Assembly: GCA_963846795.1 (NCBI GenBank)
Contig: CAWJXJ010000010.1
Span: 35,673-99,672, forward strand
Source: an uncultured Acidobacteriaceae bacterium
Lineage (GTDB): Bacteria > Acidobacteriota > Terriglobia > Terriglobales > Acidobacteriaceae
Reading direction: 5' to 3'
Length of the DNA stretch: 64,000 nt
The position numbers were made by a program, and so were the translations under genes. Each line of letters starts with the position of its first letter. Position 1 is the stretch's first letter. Below, piece after piece: positions 2,154 to 59,174 of the stretch. A model generated the notes under the pieces. That model did not search any database. It saw nothing but the letters and a program-made list of their open reading frames with translations, and was not told the DNA's origin.

Positions 2154-2507
2154 TTAGTACGAATGCGTGCCCAGCACAACCTGAACCTTGTATCGCTTCT
2201 CCAGCCTCATCTTCAGATCATCGAAGTCTATCGGGCATTGGCTGGTCTCCATAGCAGATTTCATGCAGGTGCCGAGGTGGATGACTTCGATGTTACGGTC
2301 AAGGTTATCTGCAGTTTCCGTCAATAACCTGACTCTTGCCAGCGTCAAGCCCGGGCAGTCACCGCAATCCGTCATGGCCACCAAATCGATTTGATCGTGC
2401 CGGGCGAATTCTCCGTTTTTCTCAGCGATCCCCTTGTAGCACTTGGCACATGCAACGCATGAATGGTCTTTGATACGTTTACAGTAGAGAATTGCGATCT
2501 TTGCCAT
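2154..2507 (-). CDS. CGGC-domain-like Cys-rich protein.
   Basis: Start taken at MAKIAILYCKRIKDHSCVACAKC; also has DCGDCPG. GAAAGG lies upstream of the ATG at 2507. Confidence 0.55.
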   Translation of the reverse strand: MAKIAILYCKRIKDHSCVACAKCYKGIAEKNGEFARHDQIDLVAMTDCGDCPGLTLARVRLLTETADNLDRNIEVIHLGTCMKSAMETSQCPIDFDDLKMRLEKRYKVQVVLGTHSY

Positions 2508-2675
2508 GAGCCTTTCCTTTCCGGTGAAGCACTGCCTTAAGTTGTCAGCCAGCGACAAACGTCACTGTGGATGTATAGGCCGCGATGAAAGTCTCCGCGG
2601 AGTCGCGCGAGTGTAGCACCCGGCAGCATCACTCCTCCGCCAGCCACCTTGGCTTAAGCCAATAGTTCGCTCTCT

Positions 2676-3389
2676 CTACTCAAATGCCGACTGTGTCTTC
2701 CATTCCTTCCACACGTTGCCCACGAGGTCGATTCCCGGTTTTAGCGTTGGCTTGCCGGGACGCCAACCCGAGGGCGTTGCTAAAGTACCTTTCGACGCAC
2801 GGACTAACTGGAAGGCCTCAATCTGGCGGATTGACTCCAGAACATTGCGTCCGACGGGCGGCGTCAGAACCTCATAACCCTGAATGACGCCATCCGGATC
2901 GATCAGAAAACGGCCGCGCGTCTCCACCCCGGCGTCTTCGTCGTATACGCCATATACGCTGCCAACATGGCCGCCCGCATCCGACAACATGGGAAAGGGC
3001 ACACCTCCGGTGACCATCTTGCATAATTCTTGGTCGTTCCACATCTTGTGAACGAACATGCTGTCGACGCTCGCCGACAACACTTCCACACCAAGCTTCT
3101 GAAACTCAGGGTATTTCTCGGCGACCGCCGAGAGTTCCGTGCTTCAAATAAAGGTAAAGTCACCCGGATAGAAGCACAGCAGCACCCATTTCCCGAGATA
3201 TTCGGAGAGTTTAAGATTGATGAACTTGCCTTGGTGAAATGCCGGAGCAGTGAAATCCGGTGCCTTCCTTCCGATCAGGATCACTTTGGATATCTCCTTC
3301 CCTGCTTGATGTTCGTTCTCTTTCGGAGCCGTTCCAGACACCGTTCTGCTAACCGGTCGAGCACAACCAGCATTCAACTCTTCAGACAT
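2676..3389 (-). CDS. Peroxiredoxin (AhpC/Prx family) with an in-frame TGA (3144-3146) at the peroxidatic Cys position; candidate selenocysteine peroxiredoxin.
   Basis: ORFs 3144..3389 and 2676..3089 share one frame and are separated only by that TGA. The junction reads [23 protein letters not shown] against the canonical FYPxDFTFVCPTE. Confidence 0.75.
3116..3133 (-). promoter_or_regulatory. SECIS-like hairpin downstream of the Prx TGA.
   Basis: On the sense strand, 10 nt after UGA: UCUCGGC-GGUC-GCCGAGA (7-bp perfect stem, GGUC loop). The loop GU lies 22-23 nt from the U of UGA. Confidence 0.6.
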
Positions 3390-3724
3390 GCTTCCTTGCC
3401 GTAGGGGTAAATACCCGTAATGCCAAATACTAGATGCAAGTTACACCTATAGTATAGTGACACTGTCAAGCTTGCGACCACCTCGCATTCATTTCGCAAT
3501 CACGCAACCCACCGTTATGGTTGGCATGCTGGTCTGGTTCTGGCTTCGGAGGTGTCTCGGGGAGCCGGAGGGGAGAGCCTGATGAATTTCGATAACGGCG
3601 TGGTCGACATCCCTCGCGAACCCCTTGTTACCTCTCTTCTATGTCGGGTCGGATCCACGCGTGAGGGATTTGTTTGACAAACGGAGAGCTAGCGAATCAA
3701 TAGCCAAGCGCCTGCCAGCGAGCT

Positions 3725-5029: not shown

Positions 5030-5702
5030 AACTTTCGCGACACGGTGGTGCAGCTTTGGCTCCTGTGACTCCAGAGCACTGAAATTCAGCTTGAGTCAGG
5101 CTAGCAAGCGCCGGCTGTGTACCGATCTCCCTGTATATGTCGCGCTTCGAGCCTAGGTCAAAATTGCGGCGCCCACATCGGGAGAGTTCCTAGTCGTAGC
5201 TAATTCGTTCTATAAAGACTATCGATTTACATAACTATCTTCCGCCAGTCACGTCCCGCCGTGACACTGGTCACTGAAGAACCATAGTCTTCCCAATAGG
5301 ATGCCACTAGCCTTTGGCCTCAATGCCTATCTTTAGATACTATTCGCCGCGATATGCTTCGATAGGAATCTTATGCCTTTTAGTATGTATCCTATCCCTG
5401 CAGACACGGTTGTATCCATTCGGCCCCCAGAAAGCACCCCTGAGAACTTTCGTCGACTCCGAACTTTGGAAGAGGGGACACAGCACAGAGTTATGCACCT
5501 CAAGCAATAGTAATGTTCTATATGAAACATCCGTGCCTTTTGTCCCTCCATGTCCAGATTCTTCCGTGATGAGATGCGTTCCTGAGAAGCCCGCCGCAGC
5601 CTTCAATGGCTTGGAGTGGGCAGACCGGTTGCAACGACCTCCACCGGGTCGAACGCCAGACGATGCTTTCTGGGGTTTCGCAAGAAATCTCAGGAGGATG
5701 CG

Positions 5703-7224
5703 ATGCGCAGCCTTTACTCCGTAATGGCGGCAGTTTTACTCGTTGTCAGCCACTGTTTTGCAGGGTCCAGCAGTACTCAACCTAGCGATCAACCTTCCGG
5801 CCAGAACACAACACAGGCAGTTGCGTCGGCAGCGCTTGCGTCCAATCTTGAAGTTCGCATGCAGGCAATCGAGCAGAAGCTTGAGCAGCTTGAGGATCGG
5901 CTGAATGCAGTACTTCCGGCAACTCCGTCGGAAGGTCCGGCACCCACTCCCCCTGCCGATCTCGTTGAGCGCATGGACTCGCTCGACGAAAAGCTCCAGT
6001 TGCTTGAACACAATGCGAAGGTGGAGGAAGGCCCGACCGTTACCGCGGGGCGCGACACATTTTCCATCTCCAGCCCGGACAAAGCATATCGTTTGAGGAT
6101 TGGCGGTCACTTGCAGTTGGACGCCAAGTTCTTTCCCGACGACACCGGCGACCTGCTGATCAACTCTTTCAACCTTCGTCGTGCCCGACCGATTTTTGAA
6201 GGCTCGCTCGGACAATATGTGGACTTCCGGTTTATGCCGGACTTCGGCAATGGTCAAACAGCAATTTATGATGCCTACGCCGACGTCAAGGTGTCGCCTT
6301 ACCTAGTTCTGCGTGGTGGTAAATTCAAGACTCCACTTGGCCTGGAACAGCTGGAAAACGACGCTGACCTGACCTTTATCGAGCGCTCCCTGGCGACCGA
6401 CCTGGTGCAGAACCGAGATGAAGGTTTGCAAGTCTACGGAGTTATCAACCAGCGCTTCACCTATCAGTTCGCCGTGGACAATGGCGCTCCCATCGGCGCC
6501 AGTATCACCGTTCCCACGCAGGGCGGAAAGAACATGGTCGAGCGTATCTTTTTTACGCCTTTCGCTCCCACTGACAACAAAGCTTTTGAAAGGGCTTGGA
6601 CTGGGCATTGCCTCATCCCAAGGACACCAGAACCCTGGCGCCACGCTACCTACCTTTCTCAGCACCGGCGGGCAGGCTGTATTCTTTAGCTATACCGGAA
6701 CGGCGTTGGTTAAATCTCCGTTTACAGATGGAAGCCTGACCAATATTTCGCCGCAGGCATACTACTATGCGGGCCCATTTGGTTTAATGGCCGAGTATGT
6801 AAGCTCCTCGCAAGACATTGGCGGAACAACCGTCGACAAAAAGACGATCGTGCGTGCCATCGACAATCATGCCTGGCAGATAGCTGCCTCATGGATACTT
6901 AGCGGCGAACCGAGTTCCTACAAAGCTATAGTGCCGTGCAAATGCCTTGAAAGCGGCCATCAGGTCAGAGGTTGGGGTGCGTGGCAGTTAGCCGCACGTT
7001 ATTCGCAACTGACGGTGGATCCGGATGCGTTTACTGCTGGATTGGCGGACATTACAAAATCGGCCAGGGCTTCGTACGACTGGGCCGTAGGCCTGAACTG
7101 GTACATAAACTTCTTCACCAAGCTACAAACAGATTACGAACAGTCAACGTTTACTCGCGGCGCTGTGAACGGTAATCGGCCAACCGAGCACGCCATCATG
7201 GAGAGGTTACAGATCGCTTTCTGA
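5703..7224 (+). pseudogene. Phosphate-selective porin O/P (OprO/OprP-like) outer-membrane porin, interrupted by a 1-nt frameshift.
   Basis: ORFs 5616..6689 and 6418..7224 join as ...FTPFAPTDNKA / LKGLGLGIASSQG if one T of the T4 run at 6584-6587 is removed. Has a signal peptide (MRSLYSVMAAVLLVVSHCFA), a coiled-coil N-terminus and a C-terminal ...LQIAF. Length 1522 = 3n+1. Confidence 0.7.
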
Positions 7225-8209: not shown

Positions 8210-8527
8210 CTAGACGCAGCCCGTAGGTTTGGGGAGGCCGGCCAGTTTGCAGGCGCCTTTAGCGGGGCCGGAGGGGAACAGGTCGTAGATCTGCTTGAGG
8301 GTGAAGCCGGTCTCCTTGCACACCTTGCGAACCATGGGCGCGATGCCGAACTGCAGGTAATAATTGCGAATGTAGTTGATCACTTTCCAGTGCGCGTCGG
8401 TCAGTTGGCTGATCGATTCTGTCTCCGCGAAGTCGGTCGCTACCTTCTCGCACCAGCTCTCCGGCTGCTGCAGGAATCCATCCTCATCCACGTCGTAGGT
8501 TGTTCCGTGTACTGCGAATGTCGGCAC
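8210..8527 (-). CDS. dsrC: DsrC (sulfite reductase gamma-like / TusE family) with both conserved C-terminal cysteines.
   Basis: 105 aa ending GACKLAGLPKPTGCV (Cys-x10-Cys-Val). Confidence 0.9.
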   Translation of the reverse strand: MPTFAVHGTTYDVDEDGFLQQPESWCEKVATDFAETESISQLTDAHWKVINYIRNYYLQFGIAPMVRKVCKETGFTLKQIYDLFPSGPAKGACKLAGLPKPTGCV

Positions 8528-8542
8528 AGTCTGACCTCCTGA

Positions 8543-10201
8543 TCAGTTCATTTCGATATAGCCGCAAGGACACGCCTCGGCGCACTTCTTGCAGCCGTTA
8601 CATAACTCCAGTTTCACCTTGTAGTGTTCGCCCTTGGGCAGGCGCACGAAGCAGCTATTGCTGCAGTACATCCAGCAGGTCTCGCAATCCATGCACATGC
8701 CGCAGGACATACAGCGCTTGGCCTCTTCCACCACGTCGGCTTCGGTCAAGCCCAGTTCCACTTCGGTGTCAGGCTCGCGCTCGGCCACTGCCACATGCTG
8801 CCGCTCGTGCCGCGGCGCCGCCTTGTACCACTCCGGATGCACCTTGTCTTTGCCCACCAGCACCGGCACCGCCGGCTTCTGCAGCGGAACCCCGCGCAAG
8901 CGGGCATCGATGGCCTCGGCAGCAAAGCGCCCCTGGGCAATGGCGATGGTCACCAGCCCCAGGTCGGTATCATCCCCGCCGGCATAGACGCCGTCGACCG
9001 GGGTCACCCCGTAGTCGCCGGTCTTGATCCAGTCTTTTCCCGAATGCAACTCGTCGAAGCCCGCAAACTCCGGCTCCTGGCTGATGGCGGCAATGATGGC
9101 CGTCACCGGCAGCTCAAACTCGCTGCCTTCGATCGCCACCGGCCGCCGCCGTCCTGAGGCATCCGGCTCGCCCAGCTTCATGCGCAGCGAGCGCAGCGCG
9201 ACAGCGCGTCCCTCCGCCTGCAGCACCTCGACCGGCGCCGCCAGGAACTCGATCTTCACACCCTCTTCAATCGCGCCTTCAATCTCGGAAGCCGCTGCCG
9301 GCATCTCCGCCCGCGTCCGGCGATAAAGCAGCGTCACATCGGCGCCCAGCCGGTGGCTTACCCGTGCGGCATCGATTGCCGTATCCCCGCCGCCGATCAC
9401 CATCACCTTCTCGCCGATCTCGACCTTCTCGCCGCGATTCACCAGGTTCAGAAACTCCGTCCCGCCGAAGACATTCGGCGCCTCTTCCCCCGGAATCCTC
9501 AGCCGCAAACTCTTCTGCGCCCCGATGCCGACAAACACCGCCTGGTACTGCTGGCGCAGCTCCGCCATGGTCAGCTCGCGCCCGATCATGCAATCGCACT
9601 TCAGCTCCACCCCCAAGTCCAGGATGCGTTGGATCTCCGCATCCAGTACCTCGCGCGGCAGCCGGTAGCGCGGTATGCCGTAGCGCAGCATCCCGCCGGG
9701 CTGGGGAAAGGCTTCAAACACCGTCACCGCATAGCCCCGCCGGGCCAGTTGATAGGCGCACGACAGGCCGGCCGGCCCCGCTCCCACCACCGCCACTTTC
9801 TCCGTATGGGTTCCGTTGCTCAGTTTCGAAAGCTTCAGACCCTGGCTGATGCCAAAGTCCCCGAGGAAGCGCTCGATGGCGTTCACCGCCACTCCGCCAT
9901 CCTTCGCCGTGCGGTTGCAGTTGTCCTCGCAGGGATGCGGACACACCCTCCCGCAGACCGCCGGGAACGGGTTACGTTCCGCCAGCCGCTGCCACACCTG
10001 CTCGAAGGCCTGCTGGTTCGTCTGCCCATAGGCTTCCGCCTGTGCGATGGTGGTCAGCAGCTCGCGTATCTCGTTGCCGTTGGGACAATGTCCGGCGCAA
10101 GGCGGCGACTTGGCGAGGTAGCGCGGACGCAGGGGGCTGATGTCCCCGCCCCCAGTCGCCGTCTTGATTACCGGCTTTTTAACCTCTTTGAACAGCCCCA
10201 T
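8543..10201 (-). CDS. dsrL: DsrL-like NAD(P)H:acceptor oxidoreductase (GltD-like flavoprotein with a C-terminal ferredoxin domain).
   Basis: 552 aa. N-terminal Cys clusters (CAGHCP, CGRVCPHPCEDNC), dinucleotide folds VAVVGAGPAGLSCA and VMVIGGGDTAIDAA, and a C-terminal CMSCGMCMDCETC...CNGCKKCAEACPC. Sits between dsrB and dsrC. Confidence 0.85.
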   Translation of the reverse strand: MGLFKEVKKPVIKTATGGGDISPLRPRYLAKSPPCAGHCPNGNEIRELLTTIAQAEAYGQTNQQAFEQVWQRLAERNPFPAVCGRVCPHPCEDNCNRTAKDGGVAVNAIERFLGDFGISQGLKLSKLSNGTHTEKVAVVGAGPAGLSCAYQLARRGYAVTVFEAFPQPGGMLRYGIPRYRLPREVLDAEIQRILDLGVELKCDCMIGRELTMAELRQQYQAVFVGIGAQKSLRLRIPGEEAPNVFGGTEFLNLVNRGEKVEIGEKVMVIGGGDTAIDAARVSHRLGADVTLLYRRTRAEMPAAASEIEGAIEEGVKIEFLAAPVEVLQAEGRAVALRSLRMKLGEPDASGRRRPVAIEGSEFELPVTAIIAAISQEPEFAGFDELHSGKDWIKTGDYGVTPVDGVYAGGDDTDLGLVTIAIAQGRFAAEAIDARLRGVPLQKPAVPVLVGKDKVHPEWYKAAPRHERQHVAVAEREPDTEVELGLTEADVVEEAKRCMSCGMCMDCETCWMYCSNSCFVRLPKGEHYKVKLELCNGCKKCAEACPCGYIEMN

Positions 10202-10211
10202 GGCCCTTCCC

Positions 10212-10676
10212 TCACGCGTACGGATACAGGTTGCGTTTGAAGTCTTCCAGCTGATTCAGCAGCCGGTCATGCTTCTGCTCGTCCTCGGTCAGGTAGGTCA
10301 GCAGGTGCCGCTGCACGAACAGCCGGCAACTCTTGCGCGCCTTCTCCGCCAGCTCCAGCGTTTCCTTCTCCGCCGCCGCGTGCTGTTCGATCAGGTCCCA
10401 CACCTCGCCCAGCTCTTCCGGGGTCAGGCTGAAGGCCTGCTTCTCCACACTGTCCAGAATCGCCTGCTGCACCCGCTTGTGCATGGCCGAGTCCTGGCGG
10501 ATGATCTCCATCACCAACTGGATCAGCGGATTGTGCGTCTTGCCGATGATGGCCGAGGTCTGCGCGATACTTTCCTGCTCGATCTCCTGCCAGCGCCGCA
10601 AGACGGTCTTCAGTTCGTCCAGGTTGCCGGCCGCCGGCTTCGCAACTGCTTGCTTCGTGATTGTCGACATGCTCAC
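10212..10676 (-). CDS. Uncharacterised all-helical 154-aa protein inside the dsr operon (possible ferritin-like / four-helix-bundle fold).
   Basis: Tightly packed between dsrB (12-nt gap) and dsrL (10-nt gap). Charged helical sequence with ExxH-type spacing (EDEQKH, SAMHKRV). I cannot assign a family. Confidence 0.7.
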   Translation of the reverse strand: MSMSTITKQAVAKPAAGNLDELKTVLRRWQEIEQESIAQTSAIIGKTHNPLIQLVMEIIRQDSAMHKRVQQAILDSVEKQAFSLTPEELGEVWDLIEQHAAAEKETLELAEKARKSCRLFVQRHLLTYLTEDEQKHDRLLNQLEDFKRNLYPYA

Positions 10677-10688
10677 TGTCTCCCCTCC

Positions 10689-11777
10689 TTAGTAGCGGAC
10701 ATGCGCTGAGCGGGCAAAGGTCAGCCCCGCGTGCTTGAAGTCGTCAATGTGGTAGCGGGTGAACTCGAAGCCGGTCAGCTGGAAGAAACGCGGCCAGCCC
10801 ACCCGCTCGATCCACTCGCCCATGCGCTCATACTTGCGGGCATGCTCGGCGTACACCTTGACGATGGTGGTCACCGCGTCCACCACTTCCGGCCAGCGCG
10901 GCGGGTTGTTGGGCAAAAACGGTATCGCCAGCTTGGAGAACTTCGGCGTACTGCGCGCGTTGCTCACCTTGCCCCCGACCCAGATCGAGAGCCCGTCGTT
11001 TTCCGGATCGGCCAGCGGCATGGCCGGGCACACCGTGTAGCAGTTGCCGCAGTACATGCACTGTTCCTCGATCACTTCCACCGAGTTCGTGCCCCCCACC
11101 GTCGCCGGCCGGATCGCCCCGGTCGGGCAGGAAGAGATCAGCGTCGGCACCTCGCATACCCGCGGCAGCAGTTCGTGCTTGATCTGCGGCGGCTTGCGGT
11201 GAACCCCCAGAATGGCGATATCGGAGCAATGCACCGCCCCGCACATGTTCAGGCAGCAGGCCAGCGCGATGCGCAACTTGGCCGGCAGGTCCTCATGCGT
11301 GAAGTGCTCGCACACCGCGTCCATCACCGCCTTCACGATGCCCGAGGCGTCGGTCGCCGCCGAGTGGCAATGCACCCAGCCCTGGGTGTGCACGATGTTG
11401 CTGATCGAGTTGTTGGTCCCGCCCACCGGAAAACCATTCGCCAACAGCTCCTGCTTCAACGGCTCGATCTGGCTCGCGTCCTCCAGCAGAAACTCAACGT
11501 TGTTGCGGCTGGTGAAGCGCAGATAGCCGCCGCAGTACTTGTCCGCCAGCGCGGCGAACAGGCGCAGCGTCTGGATGCTGATCAGCCGTGGCGAGGCGGC
11601 GCGCACCGTATACAGCCGCGCCCCCGACTCGGCTACGTGGCACAGCACTCCCGGCGCCAGGTTCTCGTGATACTTCCATAGCCCGTAGTTCTGCTTCACT
11701 AGCGGCGGCAGGAACTTGTCATAGGACGGCGGCCCTATATCGGTCAGTCTGGGTTGCGCAGTCACGGTCGTGCTCAT
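10689..11777 (-). CDS. dsrB: Dissimilatory sulfite reductase beta subunit.
   Basis: 362 aa. [16 protein letters not shown] and the ferredoxin motif [16 protein letters not shown] overlap with dsrA. Confidence 0.95.
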
Positions 11778-12976
11778 TGCTCACCTCCCTGGACTTTCTG
11801 TTGGAAGTAGATATATGGGTTGTCACGCGGCGCCGACACCATCTCCGGCACCGGATCCAGGCCAATGCCATCCAGAAACGCCGGCATTCCGATGCGCTGA
11901 ATCATCTCCCCCACTCGTTCCCGGTTCTTGCCGTACTCGTCCCAGAACTCCCAGATCCGCCCCACCAGCTCCTTGATCGTCTCTTCCAGCTCCGCGGCGG
12001 GAACGAACGGGATCAGCACCGACGACAGCAGCGCCCCCTGCATGATCGGCGCCTTGGCCCCGATCAAAAGCACCGCTCCCCGCTCTTTGCCCGGCCGCAG
12101 CGCCTTGGGCATCACGTTGATGCAGTGCATGCAATGCACGCATTCATGGTTCTGAATGCTCACCTGCTTGCCGTCCCACTGGAAACTCTTGGCGGGACAC
12201 ATCTCGCAGATCTCCTTCTGGATGTCCATCCCCGCCGCCACATACTTGGCCACTTCCGCCTGGTCCACCTGCATCTCGTCCTTCCAGGTGCCAATCACCG
12301 ACAGGTCGGCGCGCGCCGCCGAAGCCACGCAGTCATTGGGGCAGCCCGCACACTTGATCTTGAACTTGTAGGCGAAGGCCGGCCGGTGCAGCTCGTCCTG
12401 ATAGTTCATGGTCAGGTCGTAGCACAGCTTCATGGTGTCGTAGCAGGCCCACTCGCAACGCGCCTGCCCCACGCAGCACGACGGGGTGCGCAGGTCGGAG
12501 CCCGAGCCCCCCAGGTCAAAGCCGGCCTGCGCCAGCTCCTGGAAGGTCGGCTCCAGTTGGTCGGTCGTGGTGCCCAGCAGAATGACGTCGCCGGTCGAGC
12601 CGTGCATGTTGGTCAAGCCCGAGCCGTGTTTCTCCCAGATGTCGCAGATGGTGCGCAGCGCCTCGCTGGTGTAGAACCAGCCCGCGGGATGGTTGATGCG
12701 CATGGTATGGAAGTGCGCGATGTTAGGAAACTGCTCGCCCAGGTCGCTGTAGCGGCCAATGACGCCGCCGCCGTAGCCCAGCACCCCCACCAGGCCGCCA
12801 TGTTTCCAATGGCCTTTCTTCTCCTGGTAGGAGAGTTCCAGTTGTCCCAACAGGTCCTTGGGAGCATCACTGGTCTGGCAGGCAGACTTGATCTCTTTTA
12901 CGAAACTGGGCCAGGGGCCCTTCTCCAGCTCGTCCAGCAGCGCCGTCTTGGGCTTGCCGTTGCCTTCTTCCGCCAT
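11774..12976 (-). CDS. dsrA: Dissimilatory sulfite reductase alpha subunit.
   Basis: 400 aa. [25 protein letters not shown] and [13 protein letters not shown] motifs. RBS AAGGAGA. Confidence 0.95.
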
Positions 12977-13325
12977 ATCTCACATTCTCCTTGGCTGGCT
13001 GGTGGCGCCGACGGTGGACTGGGGATTCGCCATGGCAGCCTGGCCATCGCAGCGCTTGCCGGCGGCTGATCGGCCATGCGGTGGGGCTGCGATGGACTCG
13101 CAAATCCACTATGCCTGAGCGGCGACGCACCCTACGGTGACGTCCGTCACTCTGTTGCGTGAGAGTTAGACGAACCCAGCATGACATGCTTAACTAACTA
13201 GAACTGACAATACCTACTTAGTCGAGTGTGTTAGTCGTGTTACTTATCTCACCCCCTGACCCGCTGCTTTCCCACCCCCCTACCCCTTCCCAATTATCTT
13301 CATAACTACTTCACACCCTACTCGC
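12440..13325. repeat. Copy 2 of the approximately 885-bp duplication.
   Basis: See copy 1 (1-885). Confidence 0.95.
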
Positions 13326-45484: not shown

Positions 45485-46180
45485 GGCCGACTCAGCTTAG
45501 CCCAGTGCGCAGCGAAGCGGAGCGCTGGGTAGGGGCAGGATGACCATCGGAGCCCCAGCGGGGCTCCAAGGATTTACAGAACTCACCCAAATACGAATCG
45601 CGGATCGTATTCGAGTCCAGACTTCTTCAACAGCGTTAGAAACTCCTGCTCGAAGCTCCACGTCTTATGATGTTCCGCTTGTCCATCGATGTAATCGATA
45701 ACTACCTGGCGTTGCGATTGCGAAACGCTAAAGGCACCATAGCCCTCCTGCCATGAGAATCTGCATCCATGTTCGCCGATCCAGCGGGAACTGTGCGCCT
45801 TCAGGTCGCGCAATCCTGTCGAAAGGCACATGGCTGGAGAAATTCCGAGAAGAAGATGTACGTGATTCGTTGTACCGCCCGCAGCCATCAACAGTAGCTT
45901 CTTATCTCGAGCAACAACCCCCAAGTAGCGCCAGAGGGCCTCGGGATCCGGAATGTTGTCAGTCCGCCCCTTCGTGCTAAAGACGCAATGGACCAACATG
46001 GAGGAATAGGTGTGGGACATGCTTGCAGGGTACGGGAAGCGCCCATTGCGTTCGGTGATATCTGGCACAGTCCGGTGCTCAGCAAATCGCTCAGCGTAAG
46101 AGCCCCTACCGGGGCTCTGATTCATTGGCTACCTTACCCAGCGCTCCGCTTCGCTACGCGCTGGGCTAAGCTAAGTCGCC
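45485..46180. mobile_element. RayT (REP-associated tyrosine transposase) unit flanked by inverted REPs.
   Basis: Left REP 45485-45531 is the reverse complement of right REP 46135-46180 (TACCCAGCGCTCCGCTTCGCT.CGC.CTGGGCTAAGCT.AGTCG). Inner GC hairpins lie at 45549-45567 and 46099-46118. Confidence 0.8.
45583..46020 (-). CDS. rayT: IS200/IS605-like Y1 transposase of the REP-associated (RayT) type.
   Basis: MSHTYSSMLVHCVFSTKGR...NHVHLLLGI...SSRWI...WQEGYGAFSVS (HUH and Tyr regions). Confidence 0.85.
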   Translation of the reverse strand: MSHTYSSMLVHCVFSTKGRTDNIPDPEALWRYLGVVARDKKLLLMAAGGTTNHVHLLLGISPAMCLSTGLRDLKAHSSRWIGEHGCRFSWQEGYGAFSVSQSQRQVVIDYIDGQAEHHKTWSFEQEFLTLLKKSGLEYDPRFVFG

Positions 46181-46279
46181 CCTTCGGGGCTGTCGTAATC
46201 AAGCCCGTAACGCGATCCTTGCAGGCCGACAAGATGTTCTACCCAGGTTCTGCGCCAGCGTGGTGTCGCTTGGGATAAT

Positions 46280-56114: not shown

Positions 56115-59100
56115 CTACAGCTTCACCCTTCGCAACCTCAACGCATTGGTAATTACCGACACGCTGCTGAAGCTCATAGCTGCGGCAGCGATGATGGGCG
56201 ACAAGAGCAGGCCGAACTTGGGATAGAGGATTCCGGCGGCGATGGGAACTCCGACCGAGTTGTAGACGAACGCGAAGAACAAATTCTGCTTGATGTTACG
56301 CATGACAGCGTGGCTCAGGTGACGGGCACGCACCAGCGCGCGCAGGTCTCCTTTGAGCAGCGTGATGCCGGCGCTCTCCATGGCAACGTCGGAGCCGGTC
56401 GCCATGGCGACGCCCACGTTGGCTTGCGCCAGCGCCGGAGCGTCGTTGATGCCGTCGCCCGCCATCGCCACCGTGCTCCCCTGCTGTTGCAGCCTCTTGA
56501 TGACGTCGGCTTTGTGATCGGGCAGCACACCGGCCTCGAAATCGCGGATGCCCAGCTTGCGCGCAACTGCTTGCGCGGTGGTCTGGTTGTCGCCGGTGAG
56601 CATGACGACGCGCAATCCCGCGCGCTGCAGATCGCGAACCGCTTCGGGCGCTTCGGGCTTGATGGGATCGGCAATGCCCAGCAGTCCTGAGGGTCGTCCG
56701 TCGATGACGGCGTAGACCACGGTCTGTCCATCGCGACGGAGTGCGTCGGCCTTTTCTCTTATGGAAGCGACGTCGAGACGCGACCGTTCGTCGTCCCAGG
56801 CTAGCCCAGAAGATGGGCGAACCTGGGGCACCTGGCGTTCCTCCAAGATCGCTGGCTCGATGATAGGGGTCCTTGGACTCCGTTCGGCTGCGCCTCATTG
56901 CGCTCAGGATGACGAGATTGATTTTTGTGCGTCTCGGCGGTTTGCTCCAGGAAAATTCCCAGTTCTTCCAATAGTCTGTCATTCCCCGCCGCGACTTCGT
57001 GTCCCCCAACCACACCGATGACGCCTTTGCCGGTGAGCGAACGGAAGCCATCGGGCGGAATCAGTCGCATGCCGTTGGCGAGCGCCGCGTCAACAATTGC
57101 CGCGCCCAGCGGATGCTCACTGCCACGCTCCAGGCTGGCCACCAGTTTGACGATGCTCTCTTCGGTCTCGCCGCTGAAGGCGACGACCTCTTGCAGTTCG
57201 GGCTTGCCCTGGGTGAGTGTGCCAGTTTTGTCGAGCACGATGGTCGTGACTTTGTCGAAGGTCTCAAGCGCTTCGGCGTTCTTGATGAGGATTCCGGCGC
57301 GCGCGGCGCGGCCAGTGCCGACCATAATCGCCATCGGCGTGGCGAGGCCAAGTGCGCAGGGACACGCGATGATGAGCACGGCTACGGCGTTCACGACAGC
57401 GTTAGCCAGTCGCGGCTCAGGCCCACGCAGCAACCACACAAAGAACGTGATGACGGAGATCGTCAGCACGGTGGGAACGAAGAATGCGGCGACACGATCG
57501 GCGAGGCGTTGAATGGGCGCGCGGCTGCGTTGCGCGGCACTCACCATCTGCACAATTTGCGCCAGCATGGTGTCGCTACCCACGCGTTCGGCGCGCATCA
57601 GCAGCCATCCCGTAGCGTTCACGGTTGCGCCGATCACTTTGTCGCCCATACGCTTCTCGACCGGCATGGGCTCGCCGGTAATCATCGATTCATCGACCGC
57701 GCTAAGGCCGTCGATCACGGTGCCGTCAGTCGGAATCTTTTCGCCGGGCCGCACCCGCAACTTGTCGCCGACCTTCACCTGATCGAGTGGGACGTCGTAT
57801 TCGCTGCCGTCGTCGCGCATGATGCGCGCCAGCTTGGGCGAGAGATCAAGCAGCGCGCGAATGGCTGAGCCGGTGCGACTGCGCGCTTTGAGTTCCAAGA
57901 CCTGGCCGAGCAGCACCAGCGCGATGATCGCGGCTGCGGCTTCGAAGTAGACCTCCGGCTGGCCGCCGTGCGTGCGCATGGTGTCGGGAAAAATCTGCGG
58001 CAGCAGCGTCGCCACCGCGCTATAGATGTACGCCACGCCGACGCCCAGCGCGATGAGCGTGAACATGTTCGGGCTGCGATGCTTCACCGAGGCCCATCCG
58101 CGCTGGAAGAACGGCCATCCTGCCCATAAGACAACGGGCGTCGCGAGCAGAAACTCGATCCACGTCGCTGCGCGCGGCGAGACAACGTGCATGAGCGGTC
58201 CCATGCGAAGCATTGCAAGAGCCACCAGCGGCACGCCGAGAATGATGCTCCACCAGAAGCGGCGCGTCATGTCGCGCAGCTCGGGATTCTCTTCCTCGGC
58301 TGCGGCCACCGTGCGCGGCTCCAGCGCCATGCCGCAGATGGGACAGAAGCCCGGCTGCGAGCGCACGATTTCGGGATGCATGGGGCAGGTCCACTCGGTG
58401 CGAGTGGCGGGCGCGAGTGGAGTCTCGGGTTCCAACGCCATGCCGCACTTGGGACAGGGTACGGGCTTGGTCTCGCGCACCTCCGGACACATGGGGCAGA
58501 CCCAGACGGTCCCCGCCGCTGACGGAGGAGCGGGAGGGGCAGCTGCTTTCGTGCCTGCCGGAGCGAGATACTTTTCGGGGCTCGCCCCTGAACTTCTCTG
58601 CACAGCCGCGGCAGCAGAAGTAGTAGGTCGTGCCTTTGTGGGCAAACGTTGCGGCCGCTTTCGCCGGATCGACATTCATGCCGCAGACCGGATCGCGCTG
58701 CGGCTTGGGAGCTGTCATCGGCTGCCCGAATCCGCCGATGCTCACCATCTGAGGCTTGTGCGACATGCCTCCGGGGCTGTAGCTCGGGGCCAGATATTTC
58801 TGCGGATCGGACTTGAATTTCTCGGCGCAGCCCTTGCAGCAGAAGTGATAGAGCTTGTGTTCGTACTCAACGCTCGCCGCGGCATTCGCGGGATCGACGT
58901 TCATGCCGCAGACTGGATCGCGATCGATCTTGCAGCTGGCGCCGATCTGGACGGTGGCTTCGCTGGACATGCCTCCGGGCTTGTATGAGGCCGATAAGTA
59001 TTTCCCGGGATCGGAGACGAATTTGTGCATGCATCCCGGCGAACAGAAGTAATAGGATTCGCCCTGGTGCTGCGCCCGCCCGCGCGCCTGCGCCGGATCG

Positions 59101-59174
59101 ACGCTCATACCGCAGACGGGGTCGTGGATTGCTGAGGGCGCGGGAACCTGCTGATTTGTTTCGGTGTCGCTCAT
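56115..59174 (-). pseudogene. copA: Copper-translocating P1B-type ATPase with an extended metal-binding N-terminus, disrupted twice.
   Basis: Fragments 58020..59174, 56801..58675 and 56115..56846 together give 3x YHS/TRASH (DPVCGM..YYFC..GC..KF), 2x CPM.PE...CP.CGMALE, CPC ([13 protein letters not shown]), DKTGTLT and [10 protein letters not shown]. The lesions are an extra G in the G4 run at 58577-58580 and a 128-bp insertion at 56788-56915. Confidence 0.8.
56788..56915 (-). mobile_element. 128-bp MITE-like insertion inside copA.
   Basis: Sense-strand ends are TCGTCATCCTGAGCG...CTGGGACGACGA (imperfect TIR). Deleting exactly these 128 nt restores one frame: ...THKNQS|[24 protein letters not shown]. 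Confidence 0.65.

Follow-up and report, generated by a model that had tools for sequence, protein, structure and literature searches.

The prxU locus

The present study concerns a peroxiredoxin gene, prxU, lying on the minus strand near one end of a 64,000-nucleotide stretch of DNA from an uncultured Acidobacteriaceae bacterium (GenBank assembly GCA_963846795.1, contig CAWJXJ010000010.1, positions 35,673 to 99,672), the whole of which is referred to here as the window. The locus is very probably one intact gene encoding a selenocysteine (Sec)-containing peroxiredoxin (Prx), in which a UGA codon stands at the peroxidatic position and is followed by a hairpin resembling a bacterial selenocysteine insertion sequence (SECIS). 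The evidence presented covers the integrity of prxU, its family, the conservation of the UGA, the covariation of the hairpin stem, the purifying selection acting on both halves of the gene and the use of the standard genetic code. The features of the locus, with the support for each of them, are as follows:

Positions 2676..3389, minus strand: long reading frame of prxU, one frame with one internal TGA, matched by the NF040737 and AhpC-TSA models
Positions 3387..3397, minus strand: first start, ATG at 3389..3387, with the Shine–Dalgarno (SD)-like sequence AAGGAAG at 3397..3391; ATG and SD present in 78/78 loci
Positions 3363..3365, minus strand: codon for Cys9 in the N-terminal arm; invariant column in an alignment of 80 proteins
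Positions 3282..3300, minus strand: second in-frame start, GTG at 3284..3282 (codon 36), with the SD sequence GAAGGAGA at 3300..3293; conserved in homologues
Positions 3174..3176, minus strand: codon for Cys72 (within LLCFYPGDF), ten residues ahead of Sec; invariant column in the alignment of 80 proteins
Positions 3167..3144, minus strand: PxxxTxxU motif, P75..U82, reading P75-G-D-F-T79-F-I-U82
Positions 3144..3146, minus strand: UGA codon for the predicted Sec82, the peroxidatic residue; aligned with solved Prx structures, TGA in homologues and other assemblies
Positions 3116..3133, minus strand: putative SECIS hairpin with the 7-bp stem UCUCGGC/GCCGAGA and the loop GGUC; z-score of the minimum free energy (MFE) and covariation in the family
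Positions 3126..3123, minus strand: SECIS loop GGUC, with G22 at 3125 and U23 at 3124
Positions 2775..2777, minus strand: codon for Thr205 at the canonical resolving-Cys position; alignment to 4fh8 and 7kj1

Translation of the minus-strand positions 3389..2673 yields a frame of 237 codons including that for Sec82 (3389..2676), with the TGA at 3146..3144 as its single internal stop and a TAG at 2678..2676 as its terminal one. The UGA stands in the context FYPGDFTFI-(UGA)-STE, and past it the frame runs on for 155 codons without an additional stop or frameshift. The list of open reading frames (ORFs) and the translation agree that the two fragments 3144..3389 and 2676..3089 share one frame with a single TGA between them, just as had been noted in an earlier inspection of the letters alone (the sequence-only reading). 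Public gene calls on contigs from ENA and Logan also split prxU in two; as far as annotation is concerned, the two fragments should become one selenoprotein gene.

Family affiliation and fold

For the profile searches, Cys was put in place of the UGA in the window protein. The protein reached 398.1 bits on the NCBIfam model NF040737 (the equivalog peroxi_PrxU), the cut-off of which is 270, and matched it from position 2 to position 232 of a profile of 233, whereas the runner-up, the AhpC model TIGR03137, scored 185 bits and remained under its cut-off of 272, the remaining Prx models of the same search being likewise under theirs. Since the PrxU equivalog cut-off is passed and that of AhpC is not, the gene belongs to an already curated selenoprotein family. 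The Pfam domain AhpC-TSA was matched at 4.7e-37, and the best solved relatives, at 5e-47, are typical 2-Cys peroxiredoxins.

In the alignment with the solved peroxiredoxins, the UGA column coincides with the Cys of DFTFVCPTE, so that the UGA was rightly placed by the sequence-only reading exactly at the peroxidatic Cys; the surrounding residues form the PxxxTxxU active-site motif of Sec peroxiredoxins (PMC13188914). R158 aligns with the catalytic Arg (RG.F) of 4fh8 and 7kj1. Alignment to the same two proteins places Thr205 at the Cys of the canonical C-terminal resolving motif VCP, which here reads ATP, in agreement with the earlier remark that the resolving-Cys region (TLATPSGW) contains no Cys.

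The fold was approached through the AlphaFold2 (AF2) model of P0057, a Cys-form family member 64% identical to the window protein. Its mean predicted local distance difference test (pLDDT) value is 85.9, and in a Foldseek comparison with the PDB it retrieved PrxA, Prx2, Prx3 and AhpC on top (E ~1e-22 to 1e-20), with target-normalised template modelling (TM) scores of 0.86-0.94. Judged by this model, the protein is predicted to adopt the thioredoxin-like fold of the Prx1/AhpC type. With typical 2-Cys Prx/AhpC proteins—human Prx2 (7kj1/1qmv) and Salmonella AhpC (1n8j)—the window protein shares the fold, the loop bearing their PxxxTxxC motif and the catalytic Arg. It differs from them in having Sec for the peroxidatic Cys and Thr for the resolving Cys of VCP, as well as in features of PrxU at large, i.e. 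the extra invariant Cys72, an N-terminal arm of ~35 residues that carries the invariant Cys9, and a C-terminal tail peculiar to the family.

The founding member of the family, PrxU from Eubacterium (Peptoclostridium) acidaminophilum, is said to have been characterised experimentally by Soehling et al. in 2001 (reportedly in Biol Chem 382:979). Its published sequence reportedly counts 203 residues with U47, a size close to that of the 202-residue short isoform with Sec47 considered below for the window protein. Recent reviews place it among the verified prokaryotic selenoproteins. Both proteins are of the Prx1/AhpC type, have UGA/Sec at the peroxidatic position and miss the C-terminal resolving Cys; the window protein, however, has Ile and not Val before the Sec and Ser and not Ala after it, and it comes not from an amino-acid-fermenting Firmicute but from an acidobacterium that carries an island for dissimilatory sulfur metabolism. 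Sec-Prx were described in Deltaproteobacteria, Clostridia and Symbiobacterium by Zhang, Romero, Salinas & Gladyshev 2006 (PMC1794560), who ranked Prx fifth among the bacterial selenoprotein families by the number of selenoproteins and listed Acidobacteria as holding selenoproteins. The window protein is like those Sec-Prx in belonging to the same selenoprotein family, which occurs mostly in anaerobes, and in its T/SxxU active site. It is an ordinary member of the known and widespread PrxU family and not a new kind of gene, and the knowledge of selenoproteins is unchanged by the locus.

The hairpin downstream of the UGA

In bacterial Sec insertion, the complex SelB.GTP.Sec-tRNA(Sec) binds the loop of the SECIS and supplies Sec at the UGA. 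In prxU, the 7-bp stem, the GGUC loop and the GU at nucleotides 22-23 previously described were all found at 3133..3116, the stem beginning 10 nt past the UGA and the element spanning nucleotides +14 to +31 (the U of the UGA being 1). A 56-nt stretch folds with an MFE of -20.3 kcal/mol (z = -3.1), one of 200 shuffled sequences being equally stable; the single-sequence fold is suggestive but short of decisive. That the hairpin goes beyond chance is argued by the covariation that holds across the family.

The SECIS alignment, 54 nt long counted from the UGA, is gap-free and comprises 80 distinct sequences. The RNAalifold consensus consists of the 7-bp stem only (columns 14-20 with 25-31); 99.7% of the stem cells are paired, and G22 and U23 are unchanged in all 80 sequences. 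A lower stem including the UGA, seen in the MFE fold of the window, is absent from the family consensus and has not been counted in the element. The coding of Ser-Ala-x-Ala-Glu already fixes four of the seven stem pairs, which leaves the three formed by third codon positions as informative:

Pair 15-30, third position of Leu/Ile/Val with third position of Glu: UA 62, CG 17, GC 1
Pair 18-27, third position of Ser with third position of Ala: AU 37, GC 32, UA 8, GU 2, CG 1
Pair 21-24, closing the loop, third position of Ala with third position of Val: AU 41, GC 39, with zero mismatches

At these synonymous-site pairs, all 240 of 240 cells are paired, compared with 72.5 +/- 1.6% after shuffling (0/500 as high), and when the 3' partners are slid by 1-3 columns, the pairing falls to 30-73%. 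Across the aligned sequences, the stem is thus maintained by compensatory changes, with selection acting on the RNA. At the protein level, the residues following the active-site TE are SAVA in 96 of the 109 UGA-type homologues among 120 database proteins, while in the 11 Cys forms of the same set they drift (SAIA, SALA, AATS, TAVA, SAMA).

A separate observation was made in locus L043 (2998-3051), where a joint replacement of Ser by Ala (UCN->GCG) and of Glu by Ala (GAR->GCA) turns the pair 16-29 from U-A into G-C. This double amino-acid change reads as compensatory, the stem being kept.

In the SECIS of Escherichia coli fdhF, the upper stem-loop occupies nt 15-31 and is separated from the UGA by 11 nt; its U17 is bulged, and the loop bases are G23/U24 (PMC8659212). 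The prxU hairpin likewise lies within the ORF straight 3' of the UGA and has a GGUC apical loop with an invariant G/U, but its spacer is 10 nt and not 11, its G/U is at 22/23 and not 23/24, and its stem is a perfect 7 bp without the bulged U17. The close similarity to the fdhF geometry claimed by the sequence-only reading therefore stands for the GGUC loop and the position within the ORF; it does not stand for the distance from the UGA, which is one nucleotide shorter, or for the bulge, which is missing. With the 10-nt spacer and no bulge, the prxU element would function like the fdhF SECIS yet be no copy of it. Structures of SelB with SECIS show the central two bases of the loop flipped outwards; the invariant GU of prxU is enclosed by a G-C or A-U pair, in keeping with such an arrangement.

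Conservation of the UGA, selection and genetic code

Species-representative genomes were scanned with the C-terminal half of the protein, and relatives were found in at least 596 of 600 stretches; the best 80 of these loci were used for the codon counts. In all 78 of these 80 loci in which the motif could be located, the peroxidatic codon is TGA, which answers the question, raised by the sequence-only reading, whether orthologues have Cys or UGA in this column. The 78 loci come from at least eight phyla, and the best 80 cover Thermodesulfobacteriota, Nitrospirota, Spirochaetota, Fibrobacterota, Caldithrix, KSB1, Acidobacteriota and Anaerolineae. With relatives in so many stretches and phyla, and with Prx ranked fifth in PMC1794560, the earlier characterisation of Sec-Prx as rare and known mainly from anaerobic Firmicutes has to be corrected. 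The closest among the genome matches listed are metagenome-assembled genomes (MAGs) of Bryobacterales (86% over the C-terminal half) and Acidobacteria (84%), both of which share with the window the unusual AGC codon for Ser right after the UGA.

The picture in protein databases is different. Among P0001-P0120, i.e. the 120 nearest proteins in a collection of 5.8 billion sequences, the peroxidatic column is occupied by W in 107, by G in 1 and by C in 10. Two of the W proteins were traced to DNA (five loci), and the codon is TGA there, which identifies the W and G as artefacts of gene callers applying genetic code 4 or 25 to short contigs. It should be pointed out that W/G at the catalytic position is a systematic mis-annotation of the PrxU family.

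The comparison of the window with the acidobacterial loci L008 and L011 gave dN/dS values of 0.02-0.05 upstream of the UGA and of 0.045-0.067 downstream of it, at a synonymous divergence that is saturated (dS 1.3-3.4). The half beyond the UGA is thus, on these ratios, under strong purifying selection; it is kept and not decayed in the homologues, decay being what the sequence-only reading had named as the sign of a true pseudogene. The identical TGA and hairpin are present in two ENA contigs of 436 kb and 220 kb (ERZ25039467 and ERZ25039458) and in Logan ERR11523672, two of these three other assemblies matching the window exactly across the whole gene. Their agreement carries weight because indels distinguish the window from the ENA contig, each of which has frameshifted genes of its own. 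Within the window, TGA ends 8 of the 27 Pfam-supported genes, including dsrA, qmoB and metH, from which it follows that the genome uses the standard code. The earlier proposal of a candidate PrxU-type selenoprotein has therefore gained in strength, based on the NF040737 score, the TGA in 78/78 loci, the stem covariation, the selection and the other assemblies.

Alternative explanations

The reading of prxU as a selenoprotein gene has several points against it. No Rfam model recognises the hairpin, a permissive search of positions 2950-3300 having returned only chance matches to snoRNA, miRNA and frameshift-element models (E 0.55-8), so that Rfam speaks neither for nor against a SECIS. The bulged U required by the E. 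coli SelB is missing from the hairpin in 80/80 sequences. Furthermore, ARAGORN, NCBIfam and Pfam scans found no selA, selB, selD or tRNA-Sec in the 64-kb window—ARAGORN found no tRNA gene of any sort there—and none is present among the gene calls of near-identical contigs in the flanks of ~9-10 kb either. Finally, a search of the window for in-frame TGA codons open on both sides and followed by a hairpin with a GU loop revealed no second selenoprotein gene, the other candidates being antisense to or overlapping known genes. As to the bulge, the SelB proteins of other phyla are known to accept hairpins without it. As to the machinery, its presence in the host may be presumed from a UGA and a SECIS kept across saturated synonymous divergence, and prxU would predict the full set in this organism.

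Four other explanations were considered. The locus could be a pseudogene, i.e. a Cys-peroxiredoxin gene hit by a nonsense mutation, with an untranslated remnant downstream. The splitting of the locus into two ORFs by gene callers and the lack of recognisable Sec machinery in the window would suit such a history, which is nevertheless highly improbable: the stop falls exactly on the catalytic codon and recurs as TGA in all 78 homologues from many phyla, the 155 codons behind it are free of stops and frameshifts and evolve with a dN/dS as low as that upstream, and compensatory synonymous changes keep the SECIS stem. An error of sequencing or assembly, the true codon being TGC or TGT, might be suspected from the indel differences between the window and the ENA contig and from frameshifts of the kind typical of long-read assemblies (porin, 5616-7224; copA, 56115-59174); with the same TGA in three other assemblies (two ENA contigs and Logan ERR11523672), and with a family-wide TGA that makes a coincidental error implausible, the chance of this is close to nil.

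A genome-wide reassignment of UGA to Trp or Gly (code 4 or 25) is what the 107 W and 1 G in the database homologues would suggest at face value. It is hardly credible, as TGA terminates 8 of 27 well-supported genes in the window, the W proteins that were checked (two, five loci) have TGA and owe their letter to gene calling on short contigs, and Trp at the peroxidatic position would mean a dead enzyme. There is also a SECIS-independent variant, in which a host now devoid of the Sec machinery would read through the UGA leakily with a near-cognate Cys or Trp and make a low level of Cys-Prx. The family includes Cys forms with what look like fossil SECIS elements (see below), so lineages do abandon Sec; those that did so, however, switched the codon to TGY, and the perfect hairpin, including G22/U23, is common to L008 and L011 at a dS of 1.3-3.4, which argues that it is being maintained. 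Leaky read-through is accordingly considered very unlikely.

Cys-form relatives

The DNA set of Cys-form relatives comprises four loci and is anecdotal. In L208 (1001-1612), the hairpin behind the TGC is perfect and has the loop GGUC; in L209 (1001-1795), the stem is retained but the loop G is now A; and in L210 (360-1070) and L170, the stem pairs are broken. With n=4, this decay series looks like a fossil SECIS left by Sec-to-Cys conversion within the PrxU clade, whereas only Cys-to-Sec conversions were inferred for Prx by Zhang et al. 2006 (PMC1794560). A pattern scan of metagenome DNA for DFTFVCATE yielded mostly other Prx subfamilies (CATEFAALAE...), the sole PrxU-like locus being L170.

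The N-terminal arm, two starts and the proposed mechanism

The two starts were compared in the window (3282-3397, minus strand) and the loci L001, L002 and L008-L087. The arm motif M-x-E-E-x-x-x-G-C-A-R-P-T-G-G-P-V-G-E is present in 78/78 genome loci with sufficient upstream DNA, its family form around the invariant Cys being GCARPTGGPVGE, and in all 78 an ATG, itself preceded by a 4-mer resembling an SD, sits 7-9 codons ahead of that Cys. That the arm is coding is shown by the entropies of its three codon positions (0.68/0.53/1.62). The second start is found 46 codons ahead of Sec, where a start-capable codon occurs as ATG in 74 loci, as GTG in 4 (the window included) and as ATT in 1; an AAGGAGG-like SD precedes it in 78/79 loci, within an otherwise variable linker rich in Lys and Glu. 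The simplest reading of this arrangement implies two in-frame isoforms, one of 237 residues with the Cys arm and the other a 202-residue core with Sec47.

In addition to Cys9 in the arm, Cys72 is invariant in the family, in a column where 4fh8 and 7kj1 have Phe, the residue typical of Prx1/AhpC enzymes. The label of a 1-Sec enzyme given to the protein previously is consequently doubtful: the canonical resolving Cys is indeed missing, but two other cysteines are invariant. It is possible, although rather doubtful, that these starts yield the two isoforms and that the Cys on the flexible arm of the longer one acts as a resolving thiol on a tether, joined to Sec82 by a selenenylsulfide. If this were true, PrxU would work by a Sec/Cys pair in which the resolving Cys is N-terminal, and would be a new subtype in terms of mechanism and no 1-Sec enzyme. 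In the AF2 model of P0057, the first two ten-residue blocks of the arm have pLDDT values of 61 and 52, and the linker residues 19-36 are below 50. No description of the dual-start/Cys-arm architecture was found in the literature searched, which did not include the original PrxU paper, and if anything about the locus is new, it is this architecture.

Taken as a selenoprotein gene, prxU would be expressed in the following way. During the translation of the mRNA, the hairpin at +14 to +31 would serve as a bacterial SECIS, its loop bases G22/U23 being bound by SelB.GTP.Sec-tRNA(Sec) and Sec being delivered to the UGA in the ribosomal A site, after which translation would run on for 155 codons. In the protein, the selenolate of Sec82, located in the PxxxTxxU/Arg158 site, would reduce peroxide and thereby be converted to selenenic acid, which a thiol would recycle. 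Because the canonical C-terminal resolving Cys is absent, this thiol would be either thioredoxin directly or, more speculatively, Cys9 on the arm of the long isoform; the product of prxU is presumably thioredoxin-dependent.

Genomic context

The host belongs to Candidatus Korobacteraceae, a family of the Terriglobales (Acidobacteriota) that includes Candidatus Sulfotelmatobacter; proteins identical to those of window genes are recorded for a MAG of this family. The window harbours a complete island for dissimilatory sulfur metabolism (8210-33119) with dsrAB, dsrC, aprBA, the gene for a CxxCxxCC protein, qmoABC, sat and genes encoding an Rrf2 regulator, a multihaem cytochrome and a TauE exporter. 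A block of dsrC, a gene for a GltD-like oxidoreductase, dsrB and dsrA occurs twice as a direct repeat of 5.1 kb; the two copies, spaced 12,439 nt apart and 99.6% identical, are at 1-887—this first one beginning upstream of the window—and 8210-13325, and prxU is located in the 7.3-kb segment bracketed by the two. The repeat is present in an independent ENA contig as well (L006:4461-9578) and is therefore probably real and no artefact of assembly. The gene would add a selenium-dependent peroxide defence to a Sulfotelmatobacter-like soil acidobacterium, and its position inside the sulfur island would fit an oxygen-sensitive metabolism under fluctuating oxygen.

The neighbours of prxU are genes for a CGGC-domain protein, a universal stress protein (Usp) and GTP cyclohydrolase II. 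When the window neighbours were searched by tblastn against 82 homologous loci, no conserved prxU neighbourhood was found, the only matches being weak ones to CGGC and Usp. In every assembly of this population, the CGGC-domain (PF08821) gene itself (2154-2507, minus strand) follows prxU downstream at a distance of 168 nt and is read in the same direction. The Syntrophaceae locus L046 also has a CGGC homologue (32% identity) close to its prxU, so that the two genes may have linked functions.

Two further observations concern the window outside the prxU locus. In both the Porin_O_P gene (5616-7224, plus strand) and a gene for a copA-type P-type ATPase (56115-59174, minus strand), the coding sequence is distributed over overlapping frames. 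The ENA contig, 99.3% identical, has an intact porin gene, while its qmoA, qmoB and aprA are broken where those of the window are intact. The split porin and copA frames are probably long-read indel errors and not pseudogenes. An Acido-Lenti-1 RNA (RF01687, 50.5 bits; 46137-46191, plus strand) agrees with the placement of the host. It lies next to a gene for an IS200-type Y1 transposase (45583-46125, minus strand), 12 nt ahead of the start codon, and may represent a subterminal hairpin belonging to the insertion sequence and not a free-standing small RNA.

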